Assembly (NCBI GenBank): GCA_048594885.1
Contig: JBMDXB010000142.1
Location: forward strand, 2,148-66,147
Source: Vicinamibacterales bacterium
Lineage (GTDB): Bacteria > Acidobacteriota > Vicinamibacteria > Vicinamibacterales > 2-12-FULL-66-21
Reading direction: 5' to 3'
Length of the DNA: 64,000 nt
Position numbers and translations under genes: made by a program
Shown: piece by piece, positions 3,680 to 57,125 of the stretch
How positions within the stretch are numbered: position 1 is the stretch's first letter
How the letters are laid out: each line of letters starts with the position of its first letter
Notes under the pieces: generated by a model
What the model was told of the DNA's origin: nothing
The model's database searches: none
What the model saw: the letters and a program-made list of their open reading frames with translations, nothing else

Positions 3680-4645
3680 CTACGACTCGAAGATCCCGCG
3701 GAATGCCTGATCGATCTCCGGATAGCGGAAGTGGAACTTGAGCGCTTTCGCTTTCGCCGGGATCGCGCGCTGGCCGGTGACGAGCGTCTCCGCCATCTCG
3801 CCGAGCGCGATCTTCAGCGCGAGCTTCGGCGTGGGCAGGAGCGCCGGGCGGTGCAGCGCGCGGCCGAGCGCGCGGGCGAACTCGCGGCTGTTCACCGGGT
3901 GCGGCGCCGTCGCGTTGACCGGCCCGCTCACCTCCGGCGTGTCCACAATCCACCGCACCATCTCGAGCCAGTCGATCCGGTGGATCCACGACATGTACTG
4001 GCGTCCGGATCCCATCGGTCCGCCCACGAACAGGCGAAACGGCGTCAGCATCTTCGCCAGCGCGCCGCCCGACTGCTCGAGCGCGATGCCGGTGCGGAGC
4101 AGCGCCACGCGCGTTTCTGACCGCGCGGCGCGGCGCGCCTCCCCCTCCCAGTCGACGCAGAGAGTCGCGAGGAAATCGCCGCCGGGCGGCGAGTCCTCCG
4201 TCTTCGGATCGTCTCCGGACGGTCCGTAGAATCCGACGGCGCTGCCGCTCACGAATACCCGCGGCGGCGTCGCCACCGCATTGATCGCCGCCGCCAGGCT
4301 TCGCGTCGAGACGATGCGGCTGTCGCGCAGCAGGGCCTTGCGTTGCGGCGTCCAGCGGCCGCCGGCGATCGACTCGCCCGCGAGGTTGATCACCGCGTCG
4401 GCGCCGTCGATCACGTGCGCCCAGGCCGGCAACTGGGCTGCCGCAAAGCCGTCCGTGCCGGGCACGAGCGCCTCCGGCTGCCATCCCACGCGTGACACGC
4501 CGGGCACGCCCGTGCCCGGATCGTGCCGCGACTCGCCCGCCGGCAGCCCGCGCGTCAGCACGCGGACGTCGTGCCCTTCCTCTGCGTAGACTTCCGCGAG
4601 AGGGCTGCCCAGAAATCCGCTGCCGCCAGCTATGACGATCTTCAT
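3680..4645 (-). CDS. TIGR01777/YfcH-like NAD-dependent epimerase family protein (DUF1731 C-terminus)
   Basis: Start MKIVIAGGSGFLGS, a Rossmann GxxGxxG motif, with ATG at 4643-4645. The C-terminal region is typical of YfcH. Confidence 0.75.
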   Translation of the reverse strand: MKIVIAGGSGFLGSPLAEVYAEEGHDVRVLTRGLPAGESRHDPGTGVPGVSRVGWQPEALVPGTDGFAAAQLPAWAHVIDGADAVINLAGESIAGGRWTPQRKALLRDSRIVSTRSLAAAINAVATPPRVFVSGSAVGFYGPSGDDPKTEDSPPGGDFLATLCVDWEGEARRAARSETRVALLRTGIALEQSGGALAKMLTPFRLFVGGPMGSGRQYMSWIHRIDWLEMVRWIVDTPEVSGPVNATAPHPVNSREFARALGRALHRPALLPTPKLALKIALGEMAETLVTGQRAIPAKAKALKFHFRYPEIDQAFRGIFES

Positions 4646-6751: not shown

Positions 6752-7666
6752 ATGATTGCTCTCACTCTTCTGCTCGCGCTCATGGTGGGTCAGGCAACCG
6801 CGCCGCAGTCTGCCGCTCAACCCGACGAGACCCGGCAGCAGCTGAGTCAGGCGCAGAAGCTGATCCAGGCAGGGAACGTCACCGAGGCCGTCGCGATCCT
6901 GAAGCGCGCCGTGACGGCGTCGCCGCAGTCGTTCGACGCGCACCACGCGCTCGGACGCGCGCTCGATCTCGAGGGGCAGCACGCCGACGCGCGGCGTCAT
7001 CTGGAGCAGGCGGCCGCGCTCGCGAACGACAAGAACCGCAACAGCGCGCTGTCCGCGATGGGCGTCTCCTGGGCGTTCGAGGGCAAGGCGGACGAAGCCG
7101 CGCGCTACTACCAGCGCATCTTCGACGCGCAGATGCAGGCGAACGACCGCGGCGGCGCCGCCGGCACCGCCAACGCGCTCGGGCGCATCTTCCTCGAGTC
7201 GGGAAATCTCGACAAAGCGGAGGAGTGGTACCGGACCGGGATCGAGACGGCAAAGAAGGTCCCCGAGCTGCCACCCGACCAGGCCGCGCTGTGGGAATGG
7301 CGCTGGCACAACGCACAGGCGCGCATCGCCGCCCGTCGCAAGAACGCGGCTGCCGCACAGACGCACGCCGCGGAAGCGAAGGCGCTGCTCGACAAGGCTG
7401 GCAACGAGAACCAGCGCCCGTTCTACCCGTATCTGCTCGGCTACATGGCGTTCTACGCCGGCGACAACAAGCGTGCGATCGATGAGCTGATGCAGGGCGA
7501 TCTGAAGGACCCGTTCGTCCTCGGGCTGATCGCGCAGGCGTACGAGAAGCTGGGCGACAAGGCGAAGGCGCGCGAGCACTACGAGAAGGTGATGGCGCTG
7601 CCGTCGCACTCGATCAACACGGCTTTCTCGCGGCCGCGCGCGCGGGCGTTCCTTGCACGTCGCTGA
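6752..7666 (+). CDS. Secreted tetratricopeptide-repeat protein
   Basis: N-terminal signal peptide. Helical TPR-like repeats (AHHALGRALDLEGQHADARRHLEQAA and others). Confidence 0.6.
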   Translation: MIALTLLLALMVGQATAPQSAAQPDETRQQLSQAQKLIQAGNVTEAVAILKRAVTASPQSFDAHHALGRALDLEGQHADARRHLEQAAALANDKNRNSALSAMGVSWAFEGKADEAARYYQRIFDAQMQANDRGGAAGTANALGRIFLESGNLDKAEEWYRTGIETAKKVPELPPDQAALWEWRWHNAQARIAARRKNAAAAQTHAAEAKALLDKAGNENQRPFYPYLLGYMAFYAGDNKRAIDELMQGDLKDPFVLGLIAQAYEKLGDKAKAREHYEKVMALPSHSINTAFSRPRARAFLARR

Positions 7667-7790
7667 TCGCTGATCGCTGATCGCGTAACGCCGATCGGCG
7701 AACGTCGATCAGCGATCAGCGATCGGCGATCGGCGATCGGCGATCGGCGATCAGCGATCGGCGATCAGCGATCGGCGCCGAGCCACGAGT
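7660..7790. repeat. Heptamer palindromic minisatellite: (GCTGATC)3 followed by (GATCAGC/GATCGGC)~10
   Basis: Tandem 7-mers and their reverse complements, visible directly in the sequence. It overlaps the last codons of two convergent genes. Confidence 0.85.
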
Positions 7791-9066
7791 ACACATCGTC
7801 GAGGACGTCGGCCAGCTCGGAGCGGAAGCGGCGGAGGCGCTCGCGCGTTCCGTCGCGCGTGCGGCGCAGCAGCAGCCACGCGCGGACGGCATCGAGGACG
7901 GCCGACTCGCGCTCGATGGCGAACAGGCCGGCGATGCCGACGGAGGGCAGCGCAGCCAGCGCCGCGATGCCGGCCGCCGCGCCCCACAGCTTCCACGCAA
8001 TCGCCGCAACCGCGGCAATCCACAGCGTGTAGAGCACGAACCCGGACAGCGCCTTCGCCGTCGCCTCGACGTCCGTGTCGCGTGTGAAGCGGCGCGAGAT
8101 GGCGTGCGTCACGAGGTACGGCACCGCGAACGTCAGCATCGTGACGGCAGACAGCGGAACGAGCGCTACCGCGGCGATCAGCTCGCGCGCGGCGAAGCGA
8201 GCCGCGTCGGCGGCGGAGATCTGCCAGTCGAGGTGACGATCGCGCAGCCCGAAGCGGCGTAGCCGGTCGTCGTAACGCCGGAACTTCAGGAAGATCTCCT
8301 CGTAGCGCTGCGGGTCGGCTGCCCGCAGCCGTTCCATGCCGACGGCGATGACGCGGCGCCGCGCGACGCGTTCCTGCGGATCGTGCGGGACGGCTCGCGC
8401 GGCCGCATACAGCCGATCGATGCGATCGACCACGGCGGCGTCGCCGGCTGGATCCGCTTCGACGAGCAGCCGCCGCATGTGCTGCGCCATCCGGTCCGTC
8501 AGCGTCCGCACTGCCTGCGCATCGTCCTGCGGAAGATCGGATGCGGAAAACGGCTTGCCGTAGACGACGATCGCGCGCGAGCGAAACACCGTCTTCCGCT
8601 CGAAGTTGAGGCCGGCCGGCAGGATCGCAACGCGAATGCCGTTCTGTTCGGCGGCAAGTGCCATCCGCGCCGCGCCGGTGCGCAACGGCGCCAGCCGACC
8701 CGTCGAGTGGCTGATGCCCTCGGGAAACACGCACACCGCGTCACCCGCGGCGAACGCCGCCTCCACGGCCGCGAACGTCTCGGCGTTCTTCGACGTGTCA
8801 ACGCCCTGATCGAGCCTGCGGTAGACGGGGATCGCGCCGGCACCTGCGAGCAGCGGGCGCAGCGGCGTGCCGAACAGCGTCGATTTCGCCAGGAAACGGA
8901 CGTCGCGGCCTGCCGTCGCCCAGATCACCGCCGGATCGAGCAGCGAGTTGGGATGATTCGGCAGGATGAGGACGGCGCCTTGCTGCGGCACCGTGCCGAC
9001 GGTCTCGACCCGGTAGAAGAGCCGTGACGCCGCGCGCGCTAGCGCTCGGACGAACGGTGATGCCAT
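7765..9066 (-). CDS. 1-acyl-sn-glycerol-3-phosphate acyltransferase family (PlsC-like) with C-terminal membrane extension
   Basis: NHPNSLLD (HxxxxD) and FPEG motifs with a long hydrophobic C-terminus. The start is either ATG at 9066 (MASPFVRA) or 9093. Confidence 0.7.
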   Translation of the reverse strand: MASPFVRALARAASRLFYRVETVGTVPQQGAVLILPNHPNSLLDPAVIWATAGRDVRFLAKSTLFGTPLRPLLAGAGAIPVYRRLDQGVDTSKNAETFAAVEAAFAAGDAVCVFPEGISHSTGRLAPLRTGAARMALAAEQNGIRVAILPAGLNFERKTVFRSRAIVVYGKPFSASDLPQDDAQAVRTLTDRMAQHMRRLLVEADPAGDAAVVDRIDRLYAAARAVPHDPQERVARRRVIAVGMERLRAADPQRYEEIFLKFRRYDDRLRRFGLRDRHLDWQISAADAARFAARELIAAVALVPLSAVTMLTFAVPYLVTHAISRRFTRDTDVEATAKALSGFVLYTLWIAAVAAIAWKLWGAAAGIAALAALPSVGIAGLFAIERESAVLDAVRAWLLLRRTRDGTRERLRRFRSELADVLDDVYSWLGADR

Positions 9067-9077
9067 CGTCAACTCCC

Positions 9078-9310
9078 AAAGGCCAAGGGCCAAGGACCAA
9101 GCGGCTCAAGTTCCAAGGCCCAAAGACCAAAGACCAAAGACCAAAGACCAAAGACCAAGGCCAAGACCAAGGCCAAAGACCAACGGCCAAAGGGCGCTCA
9201 CTTGGAGGTTGGCCTTTGGTCCGTTGGGAGTTTCGATGCTTGGTCCTTGGCCTTTGGTCGTTGGCAGTTTCGATGCTTGGTCCTTGGTCTTTGGTCGTTG
9301 GTCTTTGACA
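9078..9310. repeat. Heptamer palindromic minisatellite, GGTCTTT/CCAAAGA variant, with a nested 22-bp direct repeat
   Basis: (GACCAAA)5 and CCAAGG units are mirrored by (TTTGGTC)n and CCTTGG units. gtttcgatgcttggtccttgg occurs twice. The repeat lies between the MFS stop and the acyltransferase start. Confidence 0.85.
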
Positions 9311-9314
9311 TGTC

Positions 9315-10616
9315 TCAGACGGTAGCATCGGCCGCGCGGGCGACGGCCTGCCCGCGATCGACGTTGACCATCGACAGCACCGCCCATCCCACCACGAAAA
9401 AGACGACGACGCTGAGGATGGCGAAACGCGGCGATCCCGTCACCTTCACCGCAACCGCGAACGTGGCGGGACCAAGTGCGCCGGTGAACTTCTCAAAGAT
9501 GGAGAAGAACGCAAAGAACTCCGCGCTTTTCGCCTTCGGGATCATCGTCGCGAAGAGCGATCGGCTCAGCGCCTGGCTGCCGCCCTGCACCATGGCGAGG
9601 AGGGCCGCGAGCAGATAGAAATGCAGCGCGGTGGTCATGAAGTAGGCCAGCACACTGATCACGACGTACACCGCGAGCGCGAGGTAGATCGATCGCTTGG
9701 CCCCGAACCGGCCGGCGAGCGCGCCGAAGAGGAACGCGAACGGCACGCCGACGAACTGCACGAGGATGACGGCGGCGATCAGCGGCCCGGCGCCCAGGCC
9801 AATCTGCGTGCCGTAGCTCACCGCCATCTTGATGATCGTGTTGATGCCATCGTTGTAGATGGCGAACGCCACCAGCATCACGAATGCTTCACGGAAGCCG
9901 CGCAGTTCCCTCACCGTCTGCGCGAGCTGCCGCAGCGTGATGGCCATCAGGTTCCCGCTGGCGCGGACCACGTGCGTCGGCGGTTCCGGCACCCGCCTAA
10001 AGAGCGGGATCGAGAACAGCAGCCACCATACGGCGACGCTCACGAACGAGACCCTGGCGGCCACGCCCATGTCCGCCATGCCGAAGGCCTGCGGGTAGGT
10101 GATCCAGATGGCGTTGATCACCAGCAGCAGCCCGCCGCCGAAATATCCGATCGCGTACCCGGCCGTCGACACGCGATCCATGTCGCGCTCGCCGGCGATG
10201 TGCGGCAGCAGCGCGTCGTAGAACGCCATGCTGCCGAAGGCGCCGATGCTGGCGAGGATGAAGAGAAAGGTCGCAAACCGCCACTCGCCGTAGTCGATGA
10301 AGAACATCGCGGCTGTCGAGCCGACACCGAGCGCGAGGAAGGCCGCGAGCATCCGTTTCTTGACGGGCAGATAATCGGCGAGCGCGCCCAGCACCGGATT
10401 GAGGATGGCCACAACCGCGATGGCGATCGTGTTCGCGAGCCCGTACATCGCCAGCGCGTCGGTTTCGGACAGGGTGGCCGCGGCGGTCCGCTGGAAGTAG
10501 ATGGGGAAGATCGCCGTGACGATGGTGCACATGAAGGCGGAGTTCGCCCAGTCGTACATCGCCCACGCGCGCAACTCCGGTCGTCCCAGGCCGAGGCGTT
10601 CGAGGATTCCAGTCAT
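9315..10616 (-). CDS. MFS transporter (UMF1-like)
   Basis: 12-TM hydrophobic profile starting from MTGILERLGLGRPELRAWAMYDWANSAF. The start ATG overlaps the upstream stop (ATGA). Confidence 0.75.
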   Translation of the reverse strand: MTGILERLGLGRPELRAWAMYDWANSAFMCTIVTAIFPIYFQRTAAATLSETDALAMYGLANTIAIAVVAILNPVLGALADYLPVKKRMLAAFLALGVGSTAAMFFIDYGEWRFATFLFILASIGAFGSMAFYDALLPHIAGERDMDRVSTAGYAIGYFGGGLLLVINAIWITYPQAFGMADMGVAARVSFVSVAVWWLLFSIPLFRRVPEPPTHVVRASGNLMAITLRQLAQTVRELRGFREAFVMLVAFAIYNDGINTIIKMAVSYGTQIGLGAGPLIAAVILVQFVGVPFAFLFGALAGRFGAKRSIYLALAVYVVISVLAYFMTTALHFYLLAALLAMVQGGSQALSRSLFATMIPKAKSAEFFAFFSIFEKFTGALGPATFAVAVKVTGSPRFAILSVVVFFVVGWAVLSMVNVDRGQAVARAADATV

Positions 10617-11825: not shown

Positions 11826-11992
11826 AGACATCCGTCCCTGGTCCCTGGTCCTGGTCCCGAGTCCCTGGTCCCTGGTCCCGAGTCCCTCGTCCCGAGTCAG
11901 TCCCGGGACCAGGGACCCGAGACCAGGGACCCGAGACCAGGGACCCCGAGACCAGGGACCCGTGACCAGGGACTAGGGACCAGGGACGGGGA
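11826..11992. repeat. Heptamer palindromic minisatellite: (GGTCCCT)n ... (AGGGACC)n
   Basis: About 10 units of GGTCCCT/GGTCCCG are followed by about 10 units of GAGACCAGGGACCC and similar. The M28 peptidase stop codon lies inside the right arm. Confidence 0.9.
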
Positions 11993-24055: not shown

Positions 24056-24125
24056 CGTTCTCTCGGCCCCCCGGCCCCCCGGCCCCCCGGCCCCCGGCCC
24101 CCCGGCCCCTCGGCCCCCCGGCCCC
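24056..24125. repeat. G-tract minisatellite (GGGGGGCC)n on the transcribed strand, filling the whole hisI-hisG intergenic spacer
   Basis: The plus strand reads ctcggccccccggccccccggccccccggcccccggccccccggcccctcggccccccggccccc. The mRNA strand carries eight or more G5-6 tracts. Confidence 0.85.
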
Positions 24126-24437
24126 CTAGCTCCCAAACTCCCTGAAGCAGCTTCGGGTTCCGGTGTGGCAGACGTTGCCGTCGCCGAGGCGCGTCACCTT
24201 CAACACCAGCGAGTCATCGTCGCAATCGACGAGGATCTGTTCGACCTTCAGCCGGTTGCCCGACGTCTCGCCTTTCATCCACAGCTTCTGGCGTGTGCGG
24301 CTGTAGAAGGTCGCGAAGCCGCTCTCGAGCGTGCGATCGAGCGCGTCCTGGTTCATGAAGCCGACCATCAGCACTTCGCCCGAAGCGTTGTCCTGAATCA
24401 CGGCCGGAATGAGCCCGTCCAGTTTTGAAAAGTCCAT
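24126..24437 (-). CDS. hisI: Phosphoribosyl-AMP cyclohydrolase
   Basis: [29 protein letters not shown] ... CHTGTRSCF identifies HisI. Confidence 0.85.
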
Positions 24438-26370: not shown

Positions 26371-26389
26371 GGGACAAGAGGATACAACG

Positions 26390-26550
26390 GGTCCCTCGTC
26401 CCTGGTCCCTGGTCGCGCGTCCTTGGTCGCGAGTCCCTGGTCACAGGTCCCTCGTCATAGGTCGATGCGTTGCCGATGACGGGACCCGCGACCCGGGACC
26501 CGCGACCCGGGACCAGGGACCCGCGACCCGGGACAAGGGACCAGGGACCA
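26390..26550. repeat. Heptamer palindromic minisatellite (GGTCCCT/GGTCGCG ... CGGGACC/AGGGACC) in the divergent ggt/glgX promoter region
   Basis: Tandem 7-mers and their reverse complements, read directly from the sequence. Confidence 0.85.
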
Positions 26551-28788: not shown

Positions 28789-28789
28789 G

Positions 28790-28835
28790 TCCCTGGTCCC
28801 TGGTCCCGGGTCCCTGGACCGGGGCGCGCCCCTCA
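28790..28835. repeat. Short GGTCCCT-type hairpin repeat downstream of glgX (terminator-like)
   Basis: gtccctggtccctggtcccgggtccctggaccgggg, with the CCGGGTCC/GGACCGG stem. Confidence 0.6.
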
Positions 28836-28852: not shown

Positions 28853-29599
28853 GTGCGCCCCGTGTGCCTCGTGCTTGCCGCCGCCATCCTGGCGTGCGGC
28901 AGAGACGAACCGCTGCAGGTTTCTGCCCCCATCAGCCTGACGGACGTGATGACGGCGGTCGAATCCGCCTACTCGGCTGCTGGCGGCGTACCGACGCGCA
29001 TCAGCTACGGCAGCTCCAACGGCCTCGCGCACCAGATCGTGAAGGGGTTCCCGTCCGCCCTCTTCATCAGCGCCGACGAGCGGCAGATGGACGTCGTCGA
29101 ATCCGCCGGCCGGATCGTGCCCGGCACGCGCGTCAAGCTGCTCGGCAACCGTGTCGCGATTATCGCGCGCCGCGAGACGGCGCTCACCGACGCGCGGTCG
29201 TTGACGGGAGCGGCGATCCGCCGCATCGCCATCGGCGATCCGGAAGCGGTTCCGGCCGGCGTGTACGCGCGCCAGTATCTCGAACGGCAGGGCCTCTGGA
29301 ACGCGCTGCAGCCGAAGCTCGTGCCGCTCACGAACGTCCGTTACGCGATCAACGCGGTCGACTCCGGCGCCGCCGACGCCGCGTTCGGCTACGAGAGCGA
29401 CGCCGTCCGCATGGCGCGCAGCCACATCGTCATCGTTCTCGACGGACCGGATGCGCCGTCTGTCATCTATCCGGCCGCGATCGTCCGATCGGGAGGGCGG
29501 AGCGAACAGCAGGCGGCGCGTTTCCTGGAGTTCTTGTGCGGCGAGGAAGCGGCTGCGATTTTCGCACAGCGGCATTTCGTCCCGCTGCGGTGCCGGTGA
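28853..29599 (+). CDS. modA: Molybdate ABC transporter substrate-binding protein
   Basis: Signal peptide plus ModA-like motifs (ISYGSSNGLAHQI ... FISAD). Confidence 0.8.
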   Translation: MRPVCLVLAAAILACGRDEPLQVSAPISLTDVMTAVESAYSAAGGVPTRISYGSSNGLAHQIVKGFPSALFISADERQMDVVESAGRIVPGTRVKLLGNRVAIIARRETALTDARSLTGAAIRRIAIGDPEAVPAGVYARQYLERQGLWNALQPKLVPLTNVRYAINAVDSGAADAAFGYESDAVRMARSHIVIVLDGPDAPSVIYPAAIVRSGGRSEQQAARFLEFLCGEEAAAIFAQRHFVPLRCR

Positions 29600-29603
29600 T
29601 CGA

Positions 29604-30269
29604 ATGCACATCTGGCAGATCACCTCGTTCACGATTGCGATGGCACTGCTGGCGACCGTGCTGATGCTGCCGCCCGGCATTCTGGTGGGCTGGCTGCTTG
29701 CACGGCGCCGCTTTCCCGGTCGCGTGCTGGTCGAGACGCTCGTGTCGCTGCCGCTCGTGATGCCGCCGGTCGCGACCGGGCTGCTGCTCCTGACGCTCGT
29801 CGCGCCGGCGGGTCCCGTCGGACGCCTGCTCGCGCACGCCGGCATCGACATCGTCTTCACCTGGAAGGGCGTCGTGCTGGCGATGGCGGTAATGGGACTC
29901 CCGCTCGTCGTCCGCAGCGTGCGCGCGGGTGTGGAGCAGGTGGACAGCCGGCTCGAGGCGGTCGCGTCGACGCTCGGCGCGCCGCCGTGGCGCGTGTTCT
30001 ATTCGATCACGCTGCCGCTGGCGCTCCCCGGCGTGCTCGCCGGCGCGATCCTCGGGTTCGCGCGCGCGCTCGGCGAATTCGGCGCGACGATCATGGTGGC
30101 CGGCAGCATTCCTGGTTCGACGCGAACGCTTGCCATCGCGATCTATTCCTTCGTTGAGACCGGCCGCGAGAACGACGCACTAACCCTCGTGGCGATCAGC
30201 GGTGCGATCGCGTTCGCGGCATTGTGGTTGTCGAACTGGCTCTCCGCGCGGACGGGGCTGCGGTCGTGA
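29604..30269 (+). CDS. modB: Molybdate ABC transporter permease
   Basis: MHIWQITSFTIAMALLATVLMLPPGILVGWLLARRRFPG with the EAA-loop region GAPPWRVFYSITLPLALPG. Confidence 0.8.
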   Translation: MHIWQITSFTIAMALLATVLMLPPGILVGWLLARRRFPGRVLVETLVSLPLVMPPVATGLLLLTLVAPAGPVGRLLAHAGIDIVFTWKGVVLAMAVMGLPLVVRSVRAGVEQVDSRLEAVASTLGAPPWRVFYSITLPLALPGVLAGAILGFARALGEFGATIMVAGSIPGSTRTLAIAIYSFVETGRENDALTLVAISGAIAFAALWLSNWLSARTGLRS

Positions 30270-30976
30270 TCACGCTCGACTTCGTGCTGCGGCAGGGAGA
30301 GTTCGAGCTCGAGATCCACGAGCGGATCGACGTCCGCGTCACCGCGCTGTTCGGTCCGTCGGGCGCCGGCAAGACCACGGTGCTCGACGCGATCGCGGGG
30401 CTGCGCACGCCGGCGCACGGAACGATTGCCGTCGGAGAGCGGCAGCTCTTTTCGTCGGGGGAGGCGGGGAGCCGGGGGGCCGGGGAGGCGGGGAGCCGGG
30501 GAGCCGGGGGGCCGGGGAGCCGGGGGGCCGGGGAGCCGGGGGGCCGCACGATCAATCTGCCGCCGCATCAGCGTCACGTCGGCTACGTCACCCAGGACGT
30601 CGCGCTCTTTCCGCATCTGAACGTGCGGCGCAACGTGCTCTACGGTCAGCGGCACGGGCAGAAGCTCGATCTGACGACGGTCGCCGGGATGCTGGAGGTC
30701 GGCTCGCTGCTCGACCGCCACGTCCACCAGCTCTCAGGCGGAGAGAAGCAGCGCGTCGCGCTCGCGAGGGCGCTGATGTCGGCGCCGTCGGTGCTGCTGC
30801 TCGACGAGCCGCTCGCAGCCGTTGACGTCGAGCGGCGCCGCCGGATCCTGCCGTATCTCGAGCGCGTTCGCGATCAGCTCGCGGTGCCGATCATCTACGT
30901 GACGCACGATCAGGAGGAGCTGCGGCGCATCGCCGACCGCGTCATCACGCTCGCCGACGGCCGTGTGACTACGTAG
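30266..30976 (+). CDS. modC: Molybdate-type ABC transporter ATP-binding protein carrying an in-frame Gly-rich minisatellite insertion
   Basis: Walker A GPSGAGKT, signature LSGGEKQR and Walker B LLLDEP. The GTG start overlaps the modB stop. Residues GEAGSRGAGEAGSRGAGGPGSRGAGEPG are encoded by the G-tract repeat at 30458-30546. Confidence 0.75.
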   Translation: MITLDFVLRQGEFELEIHERIDVRVTALFGPSGAGKTTVLDAIAGLRTPAHGTIAVGERQLFSSGEAGSRGAGEAGSRGAGGPGSRGAGEPGGRTINLPPHQRHVGYVTQDVALFPHLNVRRNVLYGQRHGQKLDLTTVAGMLEVGSLLDRHVHQLSGGEKQRVALARALMSAPSVLLLDEPLAAVDVERRRRILPYLERVRDQLAVPIIYVTHDQEELRRIADRVITLADGRVTT

Positions 30977-31694
30977 CCGTTGCCACGAACGTCACTATGT
31001 GCGCGTCGCGTTTCCACGGCTCCGCGCAGTGGACGGCAAATCCCGTGGACCCGAACAGCTCCACGAGGTCGCGATAGGTGTAGGCCTGATGTGAACCGTG
31101 TCGCGTCTCGACACCATCGCTCGAGATGAACGTGTAGCCGATTTCGAGCTGCTGCGTCGTTTCATCGTACCGGTTCTCGACCAGCAGGTAGACGTCTTCC
31201 ACCTTCCACCATGGCCGATCCACGAGATGTTCGAGCAGGTTCTCGAGCACCATCGGCGTTTCCAGCACGAAACGGCCGCCCGGCTTCAGCGACGCACGTA
31301 CGGCACGCAGGAACTGTGCGTTGCCGGCCCGATCGAGATACCCAAAGCTGTTGCCGACACAGAACGCGCCGTCGAACCGCGCCGGCCACGGCAGATCTCG
31401 CATGTCGCGGTGCTCCCACGCGACCCGCTGTTGCTCGTCCTGCGCGCGTGCGTGATCGATGAACTCCCGCGACAGATCGACGCCAGTCAGATGAAAGCCG
31501 CGCCCGGCCATCGCCATCGAGACTCGGCCGCCGCCGCAAGGCACATCCAGAATTGCGGCTCCAGGTTCCACGCCGAGCAGACCGAGCAGCCGCTCCGCCT
31601 CGCTCTGCGTCGCCTCCTGCGGCACCGCCTTCAGCCACATGGATACGGCGATGCCCTCGAAGAAGCTCTCCCACCAATTCGATTGAACACTCAC
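30969..31694 (-). CDS. Class I SAM-dependent methyltransferase
   Basis: LDVPCGGGRVS motif I. GTG start at 31694 preceded by an AAAGGAG RBS. Confidence 0.65.
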   Translation of the reverse strand: MSVQSNWWESFFEGIAVSMWLKAVPQEATQSEAERLLGLLGVEPGAAILDVPCGGGRVSMAMAGRGFHLTGVDLSREFIDHARAQDEQQRVAWEHRDMRDLPWPARFDGAFCVGNSFGYLDRAGNAQFLRAVRASLKPGGRFVLETPMVLENLLEHLVDRPWWKVEDVYLLVENRYDETTQQLEIGYTFISSDGVETRHGSHQAYTYRDLVELFGSTGFAVHCAEPWKRDAHIVTFVATAT

Positions 31695-31799
31695 GACGGG
31701 TCTCCTTTTGCGCTCCGCACTCGAACGGACGCACACGTGGCGGGTGTTGGTGTTATTGGGAACAGGGAGACGACTAGAAGCGGACGGCGGTGCTCAGAG

Positions 31800-31880
31800 G
31801 CAGTTCCGGCCAAAGCATAACATCGCTTTGCGATCCGCGATCCGCGCTCCGCGATCAGCGATCCGCGATCAGCGATCCCC
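31800..31880. repeat. Tandem heptamer repeat (GCGATCC/GCGATCA)~8 without an obvious inverted partner
   Basis: cgatccgcgatccgcgctccgcgatcagcgatccgcgatcagcgatccccgat. Confidence 0.75.
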
Positions 31881-31882
31881 GA

Positions 31883-32692
31883 TTACAGATCCCGCCGCTG
31901 AAAGCGCCAGTAGGCTAGGGCCGCGAAAAGGGCGGTGGCCGCCCAGAGGACGATCAGGTTGCGCCAGATTGGCGCGGTGCCGGCGAGGATCGATGCGCCA
32001 GGGTAGTAACGGAACGGAGACAGCCACGCGATCGGCCGTACACGCGGCCAGACGATCGCCAGGAAATCGATCAAATACATCGCGATTGTCGTCAGCGCCG
32101 CCACCGTGAACGCGACGCTCCATCGCTTCGCCCCGGCGGCGACGGCGAGGCCGAACGCCGCGCAGCACCATGCGAGGCTCGCCATGTGCGCGATGAGGAG
32201 GAAGATCGTCCAGGCTCGCGGCCACGCCGCGACGGACGGTGCGAACACGTTGAGGCCGGCGGCGGTGCCGGCGGCCATGGCCGAGACCAGCAGGACGACG
32301 GTCGCTGTGGACAGCAGCAGCGACCGCGTGATGACGCGACGTCGTGGCAGCGGGCGCGCGAGCAGCAGATCGACGCGTCCGCTCTCCACGTCGTGCGCCG
32401 GCTCGGTCGCGAAGTACATGGCCGCCAGCGTCACGACCATGACGACCAGCGGGTGGAAATAGCCGAACGCAACCATGCCCTGGAACGACGCCAGCCAGAG
32501 CGCCTGCTCGCCGAGTCCCCGCTGCAGGAACGCCGGGAGGAACTCCGCCATGCGCCCGAACGACAGCGTCGATTCCATCGTCGCCGCCTGTCCCGCCAGC
32601 AGGAACTGGAATCCGCCGACGACAGCGGTGCACGCGACGAGCGCGTACCACGCCTGACCGGCGGAGCGCTGGATCAGCGTCAGCAGTCTCAC
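31883..32692 (-). CDS. ABC-2 type transporter permease
   Basis: 6-TM hydrophobic protein. GTG start (VRLLTLIQRS) 9 nt after the ATPase stop. Confidence 0.7.
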   Translation of the reverse strand: MRLLTLIQRSAGQAWYALVACTAVVGGFQFLLAGQAATMESTLSFGRMAEFLPAFLQRGLGEQALWLASFQGMVAFGYFHPLVVMVVTLAAMYFATEPAHDVESGRVDLLLARPLPRRRVITRSLLLSTATVVLLVSAMAAGTAAGLNVFAPSVAAWPRAWTIFLLIAHMASLAWCCAAFGLAVAAGAKRWSVAFTVAALTTIAMYLIDFLAIVWPRVRPIAWLSPFRYYPGASILAGTAPIWRNLIVLWAATALFAALAYWRFQRRDL

Positions 32693-35468: not shown

Positions 35469-35915
35469 ATGGACGCATTTCTCGACGCCGCGATCGCAGA
35501 GGCGGAGGCCGGCCTCCGTGAGGGCGGGATTCCAATCGGGTCGGTCATCGTCCATCGGGGGCGCATCATCGGGCGAGGCCACAACCGTCGCGTGCAGCAA
35601 GGAAGCGCGATCCTCCATGGCGAGATGGATGCGCTCGAGAAGGCCGGCCGGCAGCCGGCGGCCGTGTATCGCGAATGCGTCCTCTACACGACGCTGTCGC
35701 CCTGCGCGATGTGCACGGGCGCGATCCTGCTCTACGGCATCCCGACCGTCATCGTCGGCGAGAACCGGACGTTCATGGGCGAGGAGGAGCTGCTGCGGTC
35801 ACGCGGCGTGTCAGTGGAGGTACGGCAGGACCCGCGCTGCATCCGGATGATGGAGGGGTTCATCGCAGCGCATCCGAAGTTGTGGAATGAAGATATAGGC
35901 GTCCCTGGTCCCTAG
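35469..35915 (+). CDS. Nucleoside (cytosine-type, Fcy1-like) deaminase, CMP/dCMP deaminase zinc-binding fold
   Basis: HGEMDALE ... SPCAMCTGA zinc ligands. The C-terminus ...WNEDIG resembles yeast Fcy1. Confidence 0.75.
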   Translation: MDAFLDAAIAEAEAGLREGGIPIGSVIVHRGRIIGRGHNRRVQQGSAILHGEMDALEKAGRQPAAVYRECVLYTTLSPCAMCTGAILLYGIPTVIVGENRTFMGEEELLRSRGVSVEVRQDPRCIRMMEGFIAAHPKLWNEDIGVPGP

Positions 35916-36243
35916 TCCCTGGTCACGGGTCCCCGGTCACGGGTCCCCGGTCACGGGTCCCGGGTCACGGGTCCCGAGTCCCCCCGGTCACGGGTCCCGA
36001 GTCCCCCCGGTCACGGGTCCCGAGTCCCCACGGTCACGGGTCCCGAGTCCCCACGGTCACGGGTCCCGGCTCGTGACGAGGGACGTGACCTGTGACCAGG
36101 GACCTGTGACCTGTGACCAGGGACCTGTGACCTGTGACCAGGGACCTGTGACCAGTGACCAGTGACCAGTGACCAGGGACCAGGGACTAGGGACCAGGGA
36201 CTAGGGACCAGGGACCAGGGACTAGGGACCAGGGACCAGGGAC
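35901..36243. repeat. Largest heptamer palindromic minisatellite (~340 bp): (GGTCACGGGTCCCC)n ... (GTGACCAGGGACC)n between convergent genes
   Basis: At least 12 14-bp double units on the left and their reverse complements on the right. It exactly fills the gap between the deaminase stop (35915) and the lysC stop (36252). Confidence 0.9.
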
Positions 36244-56891: not shown

Positions 56892-57125
56892 TCCCGTCTA
56901 TACGCTGCAAGCCGCCGCCGGGATGCGTGATTCGCGTGGCGCCGCCCTTCCGCCTTCGCTGAAGCTCCGGCGGACCGCCGTAGCCTTGGCGGAGGCTGGT
57001 CAGGGCTGCCCGCGGCCGTCCTCGACGCTGCTCGGCACGGCCCTGGTCCTGTCCAAGGGCCGTGATGCAGGCCTGAAGGCCTGCGCTACGAGCCGGGCGC
57101 GGCGTCTGGCACGTGTCCGGCGGCG

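Follow-up and report, generated by a model that had tools for sequence, protein, structure and literature searches.

A G-rich octamer array carried in frame within the modC gene of a Vicinamibacterales bacterium

The gene modC, coding for the ABC (ATP-binding cassette) ATPase of a molybdate importer, contains an in-frame G-rich tandem array in the 64,000-nucleotide stretch of Vicinamibacterales contig JBMDXB010000142.1 analyzed here (the window; GC 67.5%). This array, at positions 30458–30546, is probably a young, lineage-specific G-rich octamer simple-sequence repeat (SSR) that expanded in place in modC and is tolerated as a disordered surface loop. An intact gene with eleven octamers is uncommon, and no new mechanism is needed to account for it.

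Tandem Repeats Finder (TRF), run on the whole window, confirms the array at exactly 30458–30546, the coordinates given in an earlier note made from the sequence alone, and reports it with a period of 8 (11.1 copies, score 136) and again with a period of 16 (5.6 copies, 92% matches, score 152). No 24-nt period is reported by TRF, and the 24-nt unit described in that note is in fact an 8-nt unit; a repeat search of positions 30300–30700 likewise finds a family of direct repeats spaced by exactly 8. Read on the forward strand, the array is eleven octamers plus one nucleotide, ordered GGGGAGGC, GGGGAGCC, GGGGGGCC, GGGGAGGC, GGGGAGCC, GGGGAGCC, GGGGGGCC, GGGGAGCC, GGGGGGCC, GGGGAGCC, GGGGGGCC and then one G; that is, two copies of GGGGAGGC, five of GGGGAGCC and four of GGGGGGCC. 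It begins with 1.67 copies of a 24-nt block (40 nt) and continues with three copies of a 16-nt block (48 nt); both blocks are internally perfect, so the array is not decayed. Its G-rich strand corresponds to the sense strand of modC.

The modC gene (30266–30976, forward strand) codes for a product of 236 aa that is 100% identical to the deposited NCBI protein (P0001). It starts with a GTG codon at 30266, overlapping the modB stop codon, and is the last gene of modABC. ModC is the best-scoring NCBIfam family (TIGR02142, 240.4 bits, with the match in two stretches), and the assignment agrees with a Pfam ABC_tran match (E = 1.2e-28) and with the fold match described below. The curated equivalog cut-offs are missed (240.4 vs 285.05 bits for TIGR02142 and 219.2 vs 434 for NF008355), because these 353-position models include a C-terminal domain that is absent here and because the match is split by the insert. 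The Walker A, Q-loop, signature (LSGGE(K/R)QR), Walker B (LLLDEP) and H-loop (THD) motifs are all present in the translation and fall in invariant columns of a 94-sequence alignment. Walker A (GPSGAGKT, residues 30–37, encoded at 30353–30376 on the forward strand, with invariant columns G30, S32, G33, G35, K36 and T37) forms the upstream boundary of the affected segment, and the invariant Q-loop glutamine (Q110, codon 30593–30595, absent from every frameshifted product in the simulation below) forms the downstream one. The window ModC and its best 120 homologues are short proteins (207–237 aa) without the C-terminal regulatory (TOBE-type) domain.

Alignment of the best 120 homologues from a collection of 5.8 billion proteins shows that the array adds a segment absent from other ModC proteins. 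The net insertion is 84 nt, or 28 codons (30458–30541, forward strand), also evident in codon comparisons with related contigs L001 and L109, and corresponds to residues 65–92 (GEAGSRGAGEAGSRGAGGPGSRGAGEPG), between Walker A and Q110; the peptide quoted in the earlier note, its placement and its reading frame within the coding sequence are all exact. The position is empty in 116 of the 120 homologues, where the consensus reads LFSSAAR(I/V)NLPP, compared with LFSS, the 28 residues, and GRTINLPP in the window protein. The Walker A lysine and the Q-loop glutamine are accordingly 73 residues apart, vs 43–45 in the same 116 homologues and 39–45 in 42 distant metagenome ABC ATPases among the matches listed. 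The nearest relatives (P0002 and P0003, 82% identical overall and 92% over aligned columns) have no insert, and in a blastn alignment to L001, the closest contig, identity is 85% up to 30458, where the alignment breaks, and 90% from 30551, where it resumes; on either side of the array, modC is collinear with its relatives. No relative above 82% identity is present in the 5.8-billion-protein collection, the 90% cluster of the window protein has one member on one contig, the contig index has no entry for this exact protein, and a metagenome search with ModC gives, among the matches listed, no relative above 50% identity and normal motif spacing throughout. These comparisons support the view that the segment is a lineage-specific insertion without counterpart in canonical ModC, as had been proposed, and a Gly-rich segment conserved across orthologues is not seen.

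The codons of the insert reflect its nucleotide sequence. The peptide is rich in Gly, Ala, Ser, Arg, Glu and Pro; it begins and ends on GGG glycine codons and has no in-frame AGA, and it does not run from Glu (GAG) to Arg (AGA) as previously described. GGG accounts for 11 of its 12 Gly codons vs 14.5% of those in the other genes of the window, where GGC makes up 66%, and the insert codons are thus set by the DNA repeat and not by translational selection. The expansion looks recent and not codon-adapted.

An AlphaFold2 model of the window ModC, based on the 94-sequence alignment, has a mean predicted local distance difference test score (pLDDT) of 86.6 and a predicted template-modeling score (pTM) of 0.81. 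Ten-residue blocks score 91–97 through most of the core, and residues 64–95 are modeled as coil at low confidence (block means 71, 48 and 49). In the model the insert follows a beta-hairpin (strands 51–56 and 59–63) and returns to the Q-loop strand (105–108), which places it in the antiparallel-beta subdomain of the ABC ATPase, at the turn after the hairpin. The top Foldseek match in the PDB is 2onk_A, the ModC of Archaeoglobus ModBC-A (E = 4.4e-20, TM 0.76), and 3d31_A is matched with TM 0.80; 2onk_A is also the best solved match by sequence, with the insert mapping between its chain residues 57 and 61. By the general layout of ABC structures, the turn is probably at the domain periphery, clear of both the dimer interface and the coupling-helix groove.

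A second, independent insert lies in the same turn. Three proteins of another lineage (P0057, P0059 and P0098, about 65% identical to the window ModC) have 68–73 residues between Walker A and the Q-loop, and in the corresponding DNA (contigs L002 and L110) a unit of some 29 nt occurs twice in direct orientation and includes the palindrome AGCCCTGAAGGGCT, with GCACTAC after it. The opposite strand of the unit has GTAG-TGCAGCCC-TTCA-GGGCTGC (that is, GTAG followed by GCAGCCC-TTCA-GGGCTGC), an architecture resembling that of REP (repetitive extragenic palindromic) elements. The net gain is 28 aa in L002, equal to that in the window, and 23 aa in L110; the two modC genes are about 90% identical, and the insert is in frame in both despite an internal 15-nt indel. 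It is located at 10190–10290 in L002 and at about 450–540 in L110, and encodes ...SSPEGLHYGSTAKGSPEGLHYGS... L002 is syntenic with the window (hisG-hisI-ggt-glgX-modABC), so its modC and that of the window are true orthologues. Insert-free proteins at 72–82% identity separate the two lineages, and the two insertions are therefore independent. An inherited ancestral insert was rejected on this ground and because the inserts are unrelated in sequence and chemistry. Judged from sequence, the turn is structurally permissive, and this independent insert is the strongest evidence for it. Like the window array, the REP-like insert represents a type of non-coding repeat from the genome's own repertoire placed in frame at this turn with the ATPase motifs undisturbed, but it is not a short tandem array and is neither G-quadruplex-prone nor prone to frameshifts by slippage. 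A single intergenic REP-like element is present in the window at 57064–57092; its reverse strand reads GTAGCGCAGGCCTTCAGGCCTGCA, and it shares the architecture of the unit inserted in the sister-lineage modC.

Among the roles put forward in the earlier note, a tolerated flexible loop is the one favored, by the AlphaFold2 core with pLDDT above 90, the insert coil at about 48–71, and the independent sister insert. The same observations bear on whether selection has instead favored the Gly-rich loop for a function in the ATPase, be it flexible tethering, partner binding or regulation. A disordered insertion in the ABC-beta subdomain has a regulatory role in nucleotide-binding domain 1 (NBD1) of CFTR, where about 30 disordered residues are tolerated in this subdomain as in the window ModC; the CFTR insertion differs in lying between the first two strands, before Walker A, and in being conserved, functional and without an origin in a nucleotide repeat. 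Two lineages have independently gained about 28 residues in the same turn, as selection might produce, but these segments have no sequence or chemistry in common, the codons of the window insert are dictated by the repeat, its closest relatives lack it, and it is predicted to be unstructured. We regard an adaptive role for the loop as highly improbable.

The window contains one other array of the same octamer family. This sister array, (GGGGGGCC)~8, is at 24064–24126 and reads on the minus strand (TRF period 8, 8 copies); it occupies the hisI-hisG spacer, beginning at the hisI stop codon and ending 8 nt short of the hisG ATG. The two arrays lie 6.3 kb apart and have in common the CCGGGGGGCC core, as the earlier note had pointed out, as well as the 14-nt string CCGGGGGGCCGGGG. 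A two-unit degenerate octamer pattern has 16 matches in the window vs 0.08 expected from shuffled sequences, and all 16 are confined to these two arrays. They are on opposite DNA strands, yet the G-rich strand is again the sense strand in the spacer array. The window has about 17 arrays of 7–9-nt units in all; the modC and hisI-hisG arrays differ in unit variants and length, and the other arrays each have their own unit.

This kinship had been taken to indicate a mobile minisatellite that has invaded modC, and a copy-and-paste or transposable element could in principle have moved there from a locus such as the hisI-hisG spacer, leaving the common octamers and 14-nt string. However, no terminal inverted repeats or target-site duplication are found around the modC array, where a search of 30300–30700 returns only the octamer family and chance matches of 10–12 nt, and no copies of the same defined element are present elsewhere in the window, the only related locus being the 24064–24126 array, with its different length and variants and no defined length of its own. 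With neither ends nor a target-site duplication at the modC array, this reading was rejected, and we consider it barely credible. The motif is moreover generic. When 185,579 species genomes are searched for three GGGGRGCC units in a row, at least 106 loci are found in over 100 species genomes, which among the matches listed include Streptomyces, Planctomycetes, Gemmatimonadota, a Vicinamibacterales metagenome-assembled genome (MAG), cyanobacteria and others; simple arrays in groups such as Streptomyces, Planctomycetes and cyanobacteria point to convergence and not to one element. The Vicinamibacterales MAG that has the motif (L004) has no alignable DNA in common with the window by blastn. These arrays, of 3–15 units, span Actinomycetota, Planctomycetota, Gemmatimonadota, Acidobacteriota, Myxococcota and cyanobacteria (L003–L108), for example L008 794–912, L013 892–1011 and, on the reverse strand, L061 7175–7206.

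The placement of these arrays relative to genes was assessed with a crude coding test, which asks for an open frame across the array and for a coding signal on both sides (GC content at third minus second codon positions, GC3 minus GC2); it was validated on the modC array (positive control) and the his-spacer array (negative control). Among the matches listed, 106 of 107 GGGGRGCC arrays of other genomes are non-coding, the sole coding exception being in a loop (…GEEALGEPGSRGAGGPW…) of a Nonomuraea membrane protein. Within the window, the modC array is the only one flagged as coding among about 17 with a unit length not divisible by three, and, as expected, arrays whose period is a multiple of three, of which there are two (9 and 27 nt), lie in a gene. 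A generic motif that is mostly non-coding elsewhere, has no mobile ends and carries the GGG bias described above argues for local expansion of a compositionally favored SSR.

The modC array shares features with the G-rich SSRs of 6–9 nt described in high-GC and cyanobacterial genomes, such as GGGNATC in Xanthomonas and GGGGA(C/T)T in Nostoc (Rehm et al. 2015, PMC4692102). As in that class, short G-rich units are repeated head to tail (eleven octamers here, two to tens in the class), with at least four consecutive G-tracts; the formation of G-quadruplexes in modC is predicted from sequence and an energy model. The placement of the sister array, in the hisI-hisG spacer from the stop codon onward, is the typical location reported for the Xanthomonas and Nostoc heptamer repeats (PMC4692102). 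The modC array differs from them in having an octamer unit with tracts of four to six Gs (GGGGRGCC), and in its position: the class is mainly non-coding, whereas this array is inside a coding sequence, on the coding strand of an open reading frame (ORF), where such repeats are reported to be under-represented (PMC4692102) and where only the 1 of 107 arrays noted above is found elsewhere among the matches listed.

We favor the following origin for the tolerated loop. The array would have arisen by replication slippage or unequal exchange, the same process that may seed the intergenic spacers of this genome with 7–8-nt arrays. It would survive in modC because the turn is one of few sites in the domain where some 30 extra residues are harmless, and also because its total length happens to be in frame; its effect on the protein would be that of a passenger loop.

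The reading frame is preserved only by the array as a whole (net +84 nt) and not by its 8-nt unit. Since the unit is 8 nt, every single-unit change shifts the frame of modC, contrary to the frame-keeping 24-nt unit assumed in the earlier note, and a switch is mechanically more plausible than that note supposed. Simulation of arrays of 0–15 units gives full-length ModC only at 2, 5, 8, 11 and 14 units; all other unit numbers give products of 88–191 aa without the Q-loop, signature, Walker B and H-loop.

These properties invite comparison with contingency loci, in which the octamer tract would turn molybdate import ON or OFF at random: the gain or loss of one or two units by slippage would shift the frame, further slippage would restore it, and the population would always be a mix of ModC-ON and ModC-OFF cells. 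Several features are those expected of such a locus. The unit number is one of the few that keep the frame, and the unit, not being divisible by three, shifts it whenever the number changes; slippage is favored by the length (11 units) and internal perfection of the tract; it lies within the first 27–39% of the ORF, so that frameshifts are null; and modC is last in its operon, so that no polar effects follow. On the other side, one tract in three would be in frame at random, and no length variation is observed: no relative exceeds 82% identity, the cluster is a singleton, and no exact match to the 24-nt left flank of the array is found in the metagenome contigs scanned. The array is the only in-gene array in the 64 kb with a unit not divisible by three, so no repertoire of contingency genes is seen, and the gene codes for a cytoplasmic transporter ATPase. 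Known contingency genes have surface, restriction-modification or host-interaction functions in host-adapted bacteria, and are not known to include cytoplasmic housekeeping ATPases. A contingency switch in modC is for these reasons unlikely. A broader form, in which a working one-in-three stochastic switch of molybdate uptake in a free-living, high-GC environmental bacterium would be the product of lineage-wide array turnover, by a process that keeps seeding and turning over 7–8-nt arrays at gene boundaries, is more doubtful still.

The established examples of phase-variable contingency loci are tetra-, penta- and heptanucleotide SSRs in genes of Haemophilus and Neisseria (PMC2651432, PMC3315296). 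The modC tract resembles them in being a long pure repeat in the 5' third of an ORF, with a unit not divisible by three and truncation of the product when the unit number changes. It differs from them in its host, apparently an environmental bacterium, in the housekeeping function of a gene that has no counterpart with such a tract in the window, and in encoding a sizeable loop in the ON state and not lying near the start codon. Were the switch real, contingency-type hypermutation and G-quadruplex-prone repeats would shape housekeeping metabolism outside pathogens, and if the tract length varies in nature, phase variation would be extended to a nutrient transporter of an environmental bacterium.

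The sense strand of the modC array has eleven tracts of four to six Gs, 2–4 nt apart, and is a very strong G-quadruplex motif; only eight clusters of such motifs are present in the whole window. Folding of the sense RNA with ViennaRNA gives –101.6 kcal/mol with G-quadruplex energies vs –58.4 without, with two four-layer quadruplexes predicted, and the antisense strand gains nothing from these energies. Quadruplexes in the mRNA or in the non-template DNA might throttle translation or transcription of modC and so set the level of ModC relative to ModA and ModB. The eleven tracts and the two predicted quadruplexes are consistent with this proposal, as is the sense-strand G-richness of the hisI-hisG array, and related G-rich heptamer repeats form G-quadruplexes in vitro and favor coding-strand positions directly downstream of stop codons (PMC4692102). 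The folding in modC is a prediction only, however, and the tract is absent from the nearest relatives, where a regulator should have been conserved; two sense-strand cases are too few for a bias, and the reported avoidance of the coding strand within ORFs (PMC4692102) argues for a cost over a function. On the basis of these models and comparisons, we judge such regulation to be improbable. Both the frameshift hot spot and the G-quadruplex motif would be by-products, and neither is needed to explain the presence of the array.

The tract, or its number of units, could also be an artefact of short-read assembly across a low-complexity G-rich region. Such tracts are error-prone, the insert occurs in one assembly only, with a cluster of one member on one contig, and the unit number can be verified only from the reads. 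Nonetheless, at 89 nt the tract is below typical read length, the frame is preserved, and the flanks are collinear with relatives; many comparable arrays occupy spacers of this genome, the syntenic relative has arrays too, and an insert-free modC would have no long k-mer in common with an array elsewhere from which a false join could be made. We consider an artefact very unlikely.

Several considerations weigh against a tolerated, locally expanded repeat, as favored here. The insert is found in one genome only, so that we infer its neutrality, age and stability, and surface exposure is judged from the pLDDT values, the predicted secondary structure and homology to 2onk. An array of 11 units, with a unit not divisible by three, in an intact gene has the look of a contingency locus. 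A passive tract this pure should often slip, and its intactness would need either low slippage or ongoing selection. Finally, under-representation within ORFs on the coding strand is reported for this class of G-rich repeats (PMC4692102), and a neutral reading accepts a rare event.

Coding-region SSRs that create disordered segments are a known class, and the modC array is a further case. Tandem repeats in Borgs create intrinsically disordered protein regions; ORFs contain about half of these repeats, always with a unit length that is a multiple of three (Schoelmerich et al. 2023, PMC9879509). Perfect and fast-evolving repeats between and within genes, with locus-specific units and in-ORF copies that add disorder, are common to Borgs and the window, but Borg repeats are A-rich and the modC array is G-rich; its 8-nt unit keeps the frame only through the summed length, and no other of the about 17 arrays with units not divisible by three lies in an ORF. 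If modC does carry a passenger, it offers a clean natural case of a non-coding-type repeat turned into a disordered protein loop. The two unrelated inserts also mark this turn of the ABC ATPase as insertion-tolerant, which would be useful for domain tagging or engineering, and an intact bacterial gene that has, unusually, a candidate quadruplex array with four G-tracts on its coding strand provides a ready test of translation impediment in high-GC bacteria.

The other short-period arrays of the window are varied in organization. Heptamer arrays of opposite polarity, such as (GTCCCTG)n facing (CAGGGAC)n, are paired in the spacers at 9068–9309, 11835–11992, 26388–26550 and 35901–36243, each pair forming a long imperfect palindrome with arms of up to 82 nt and 84% complementarity. 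Several of these pairs abut or overlap the stop codons of convergent or co-directional genes, and they loosely resemble cyanobacterial heptamer repeats of the STRR (short tandemly repeated repetitive) type. Between two convergent genes at 7660–7777, (TCGCTGA)3.6 runs into (CGATCGG)12, a unit that holds the palindrome CGATCG. No known RNA elements are found in the window with Rfam at gathering thresholds and ARAGORN.

Spacer arrays also occur in the syntenic contig L002, at 3815–3880 and 8460–8560, in the spacers that match those of the window (hisI-hisG and glgX-modA) but with unrelated units. The hisI-hisG spacer has CACAGAGA in L002 vs CGGCCCCC in the window (24064–24126), and the glgX-modA spacer has CATCGAC and AGAACCTT vs GTCCCTG (28789–28817). 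Array position thus appears to be conserved between the two while sequence is not, which could be coincidence given the density of arrays.

The two other genes of the molybdate operon are located immediately upstream of modC and are transcribed in the same direction. The first, modA (28853–29599, forward strand), codes for the molybdate-binding protein (NCBIfam TIGR01256, 149.8 bits vs a cut-off of 62.5), and modB (29601–30269, forward strand), directly upstream of modC, codes for the permease (TIGR02141, 222.1 bits vs 182.6). The modA-modB-modC order is likewise found in the related contigs L001, L002 and L109. Downstream of modC, a minus-strand gene for an S-adenosylmethionine (SAM)-dependent methyltransferase and a (GCGATCC)7.7 array at 31830–31883 have no counterpart in the closest relative, L001, where sequence matching the window from 31884 onward adjoins modC; the difference amounts to an indel of about 0.9 kb beside the operon (window 30969–31883).

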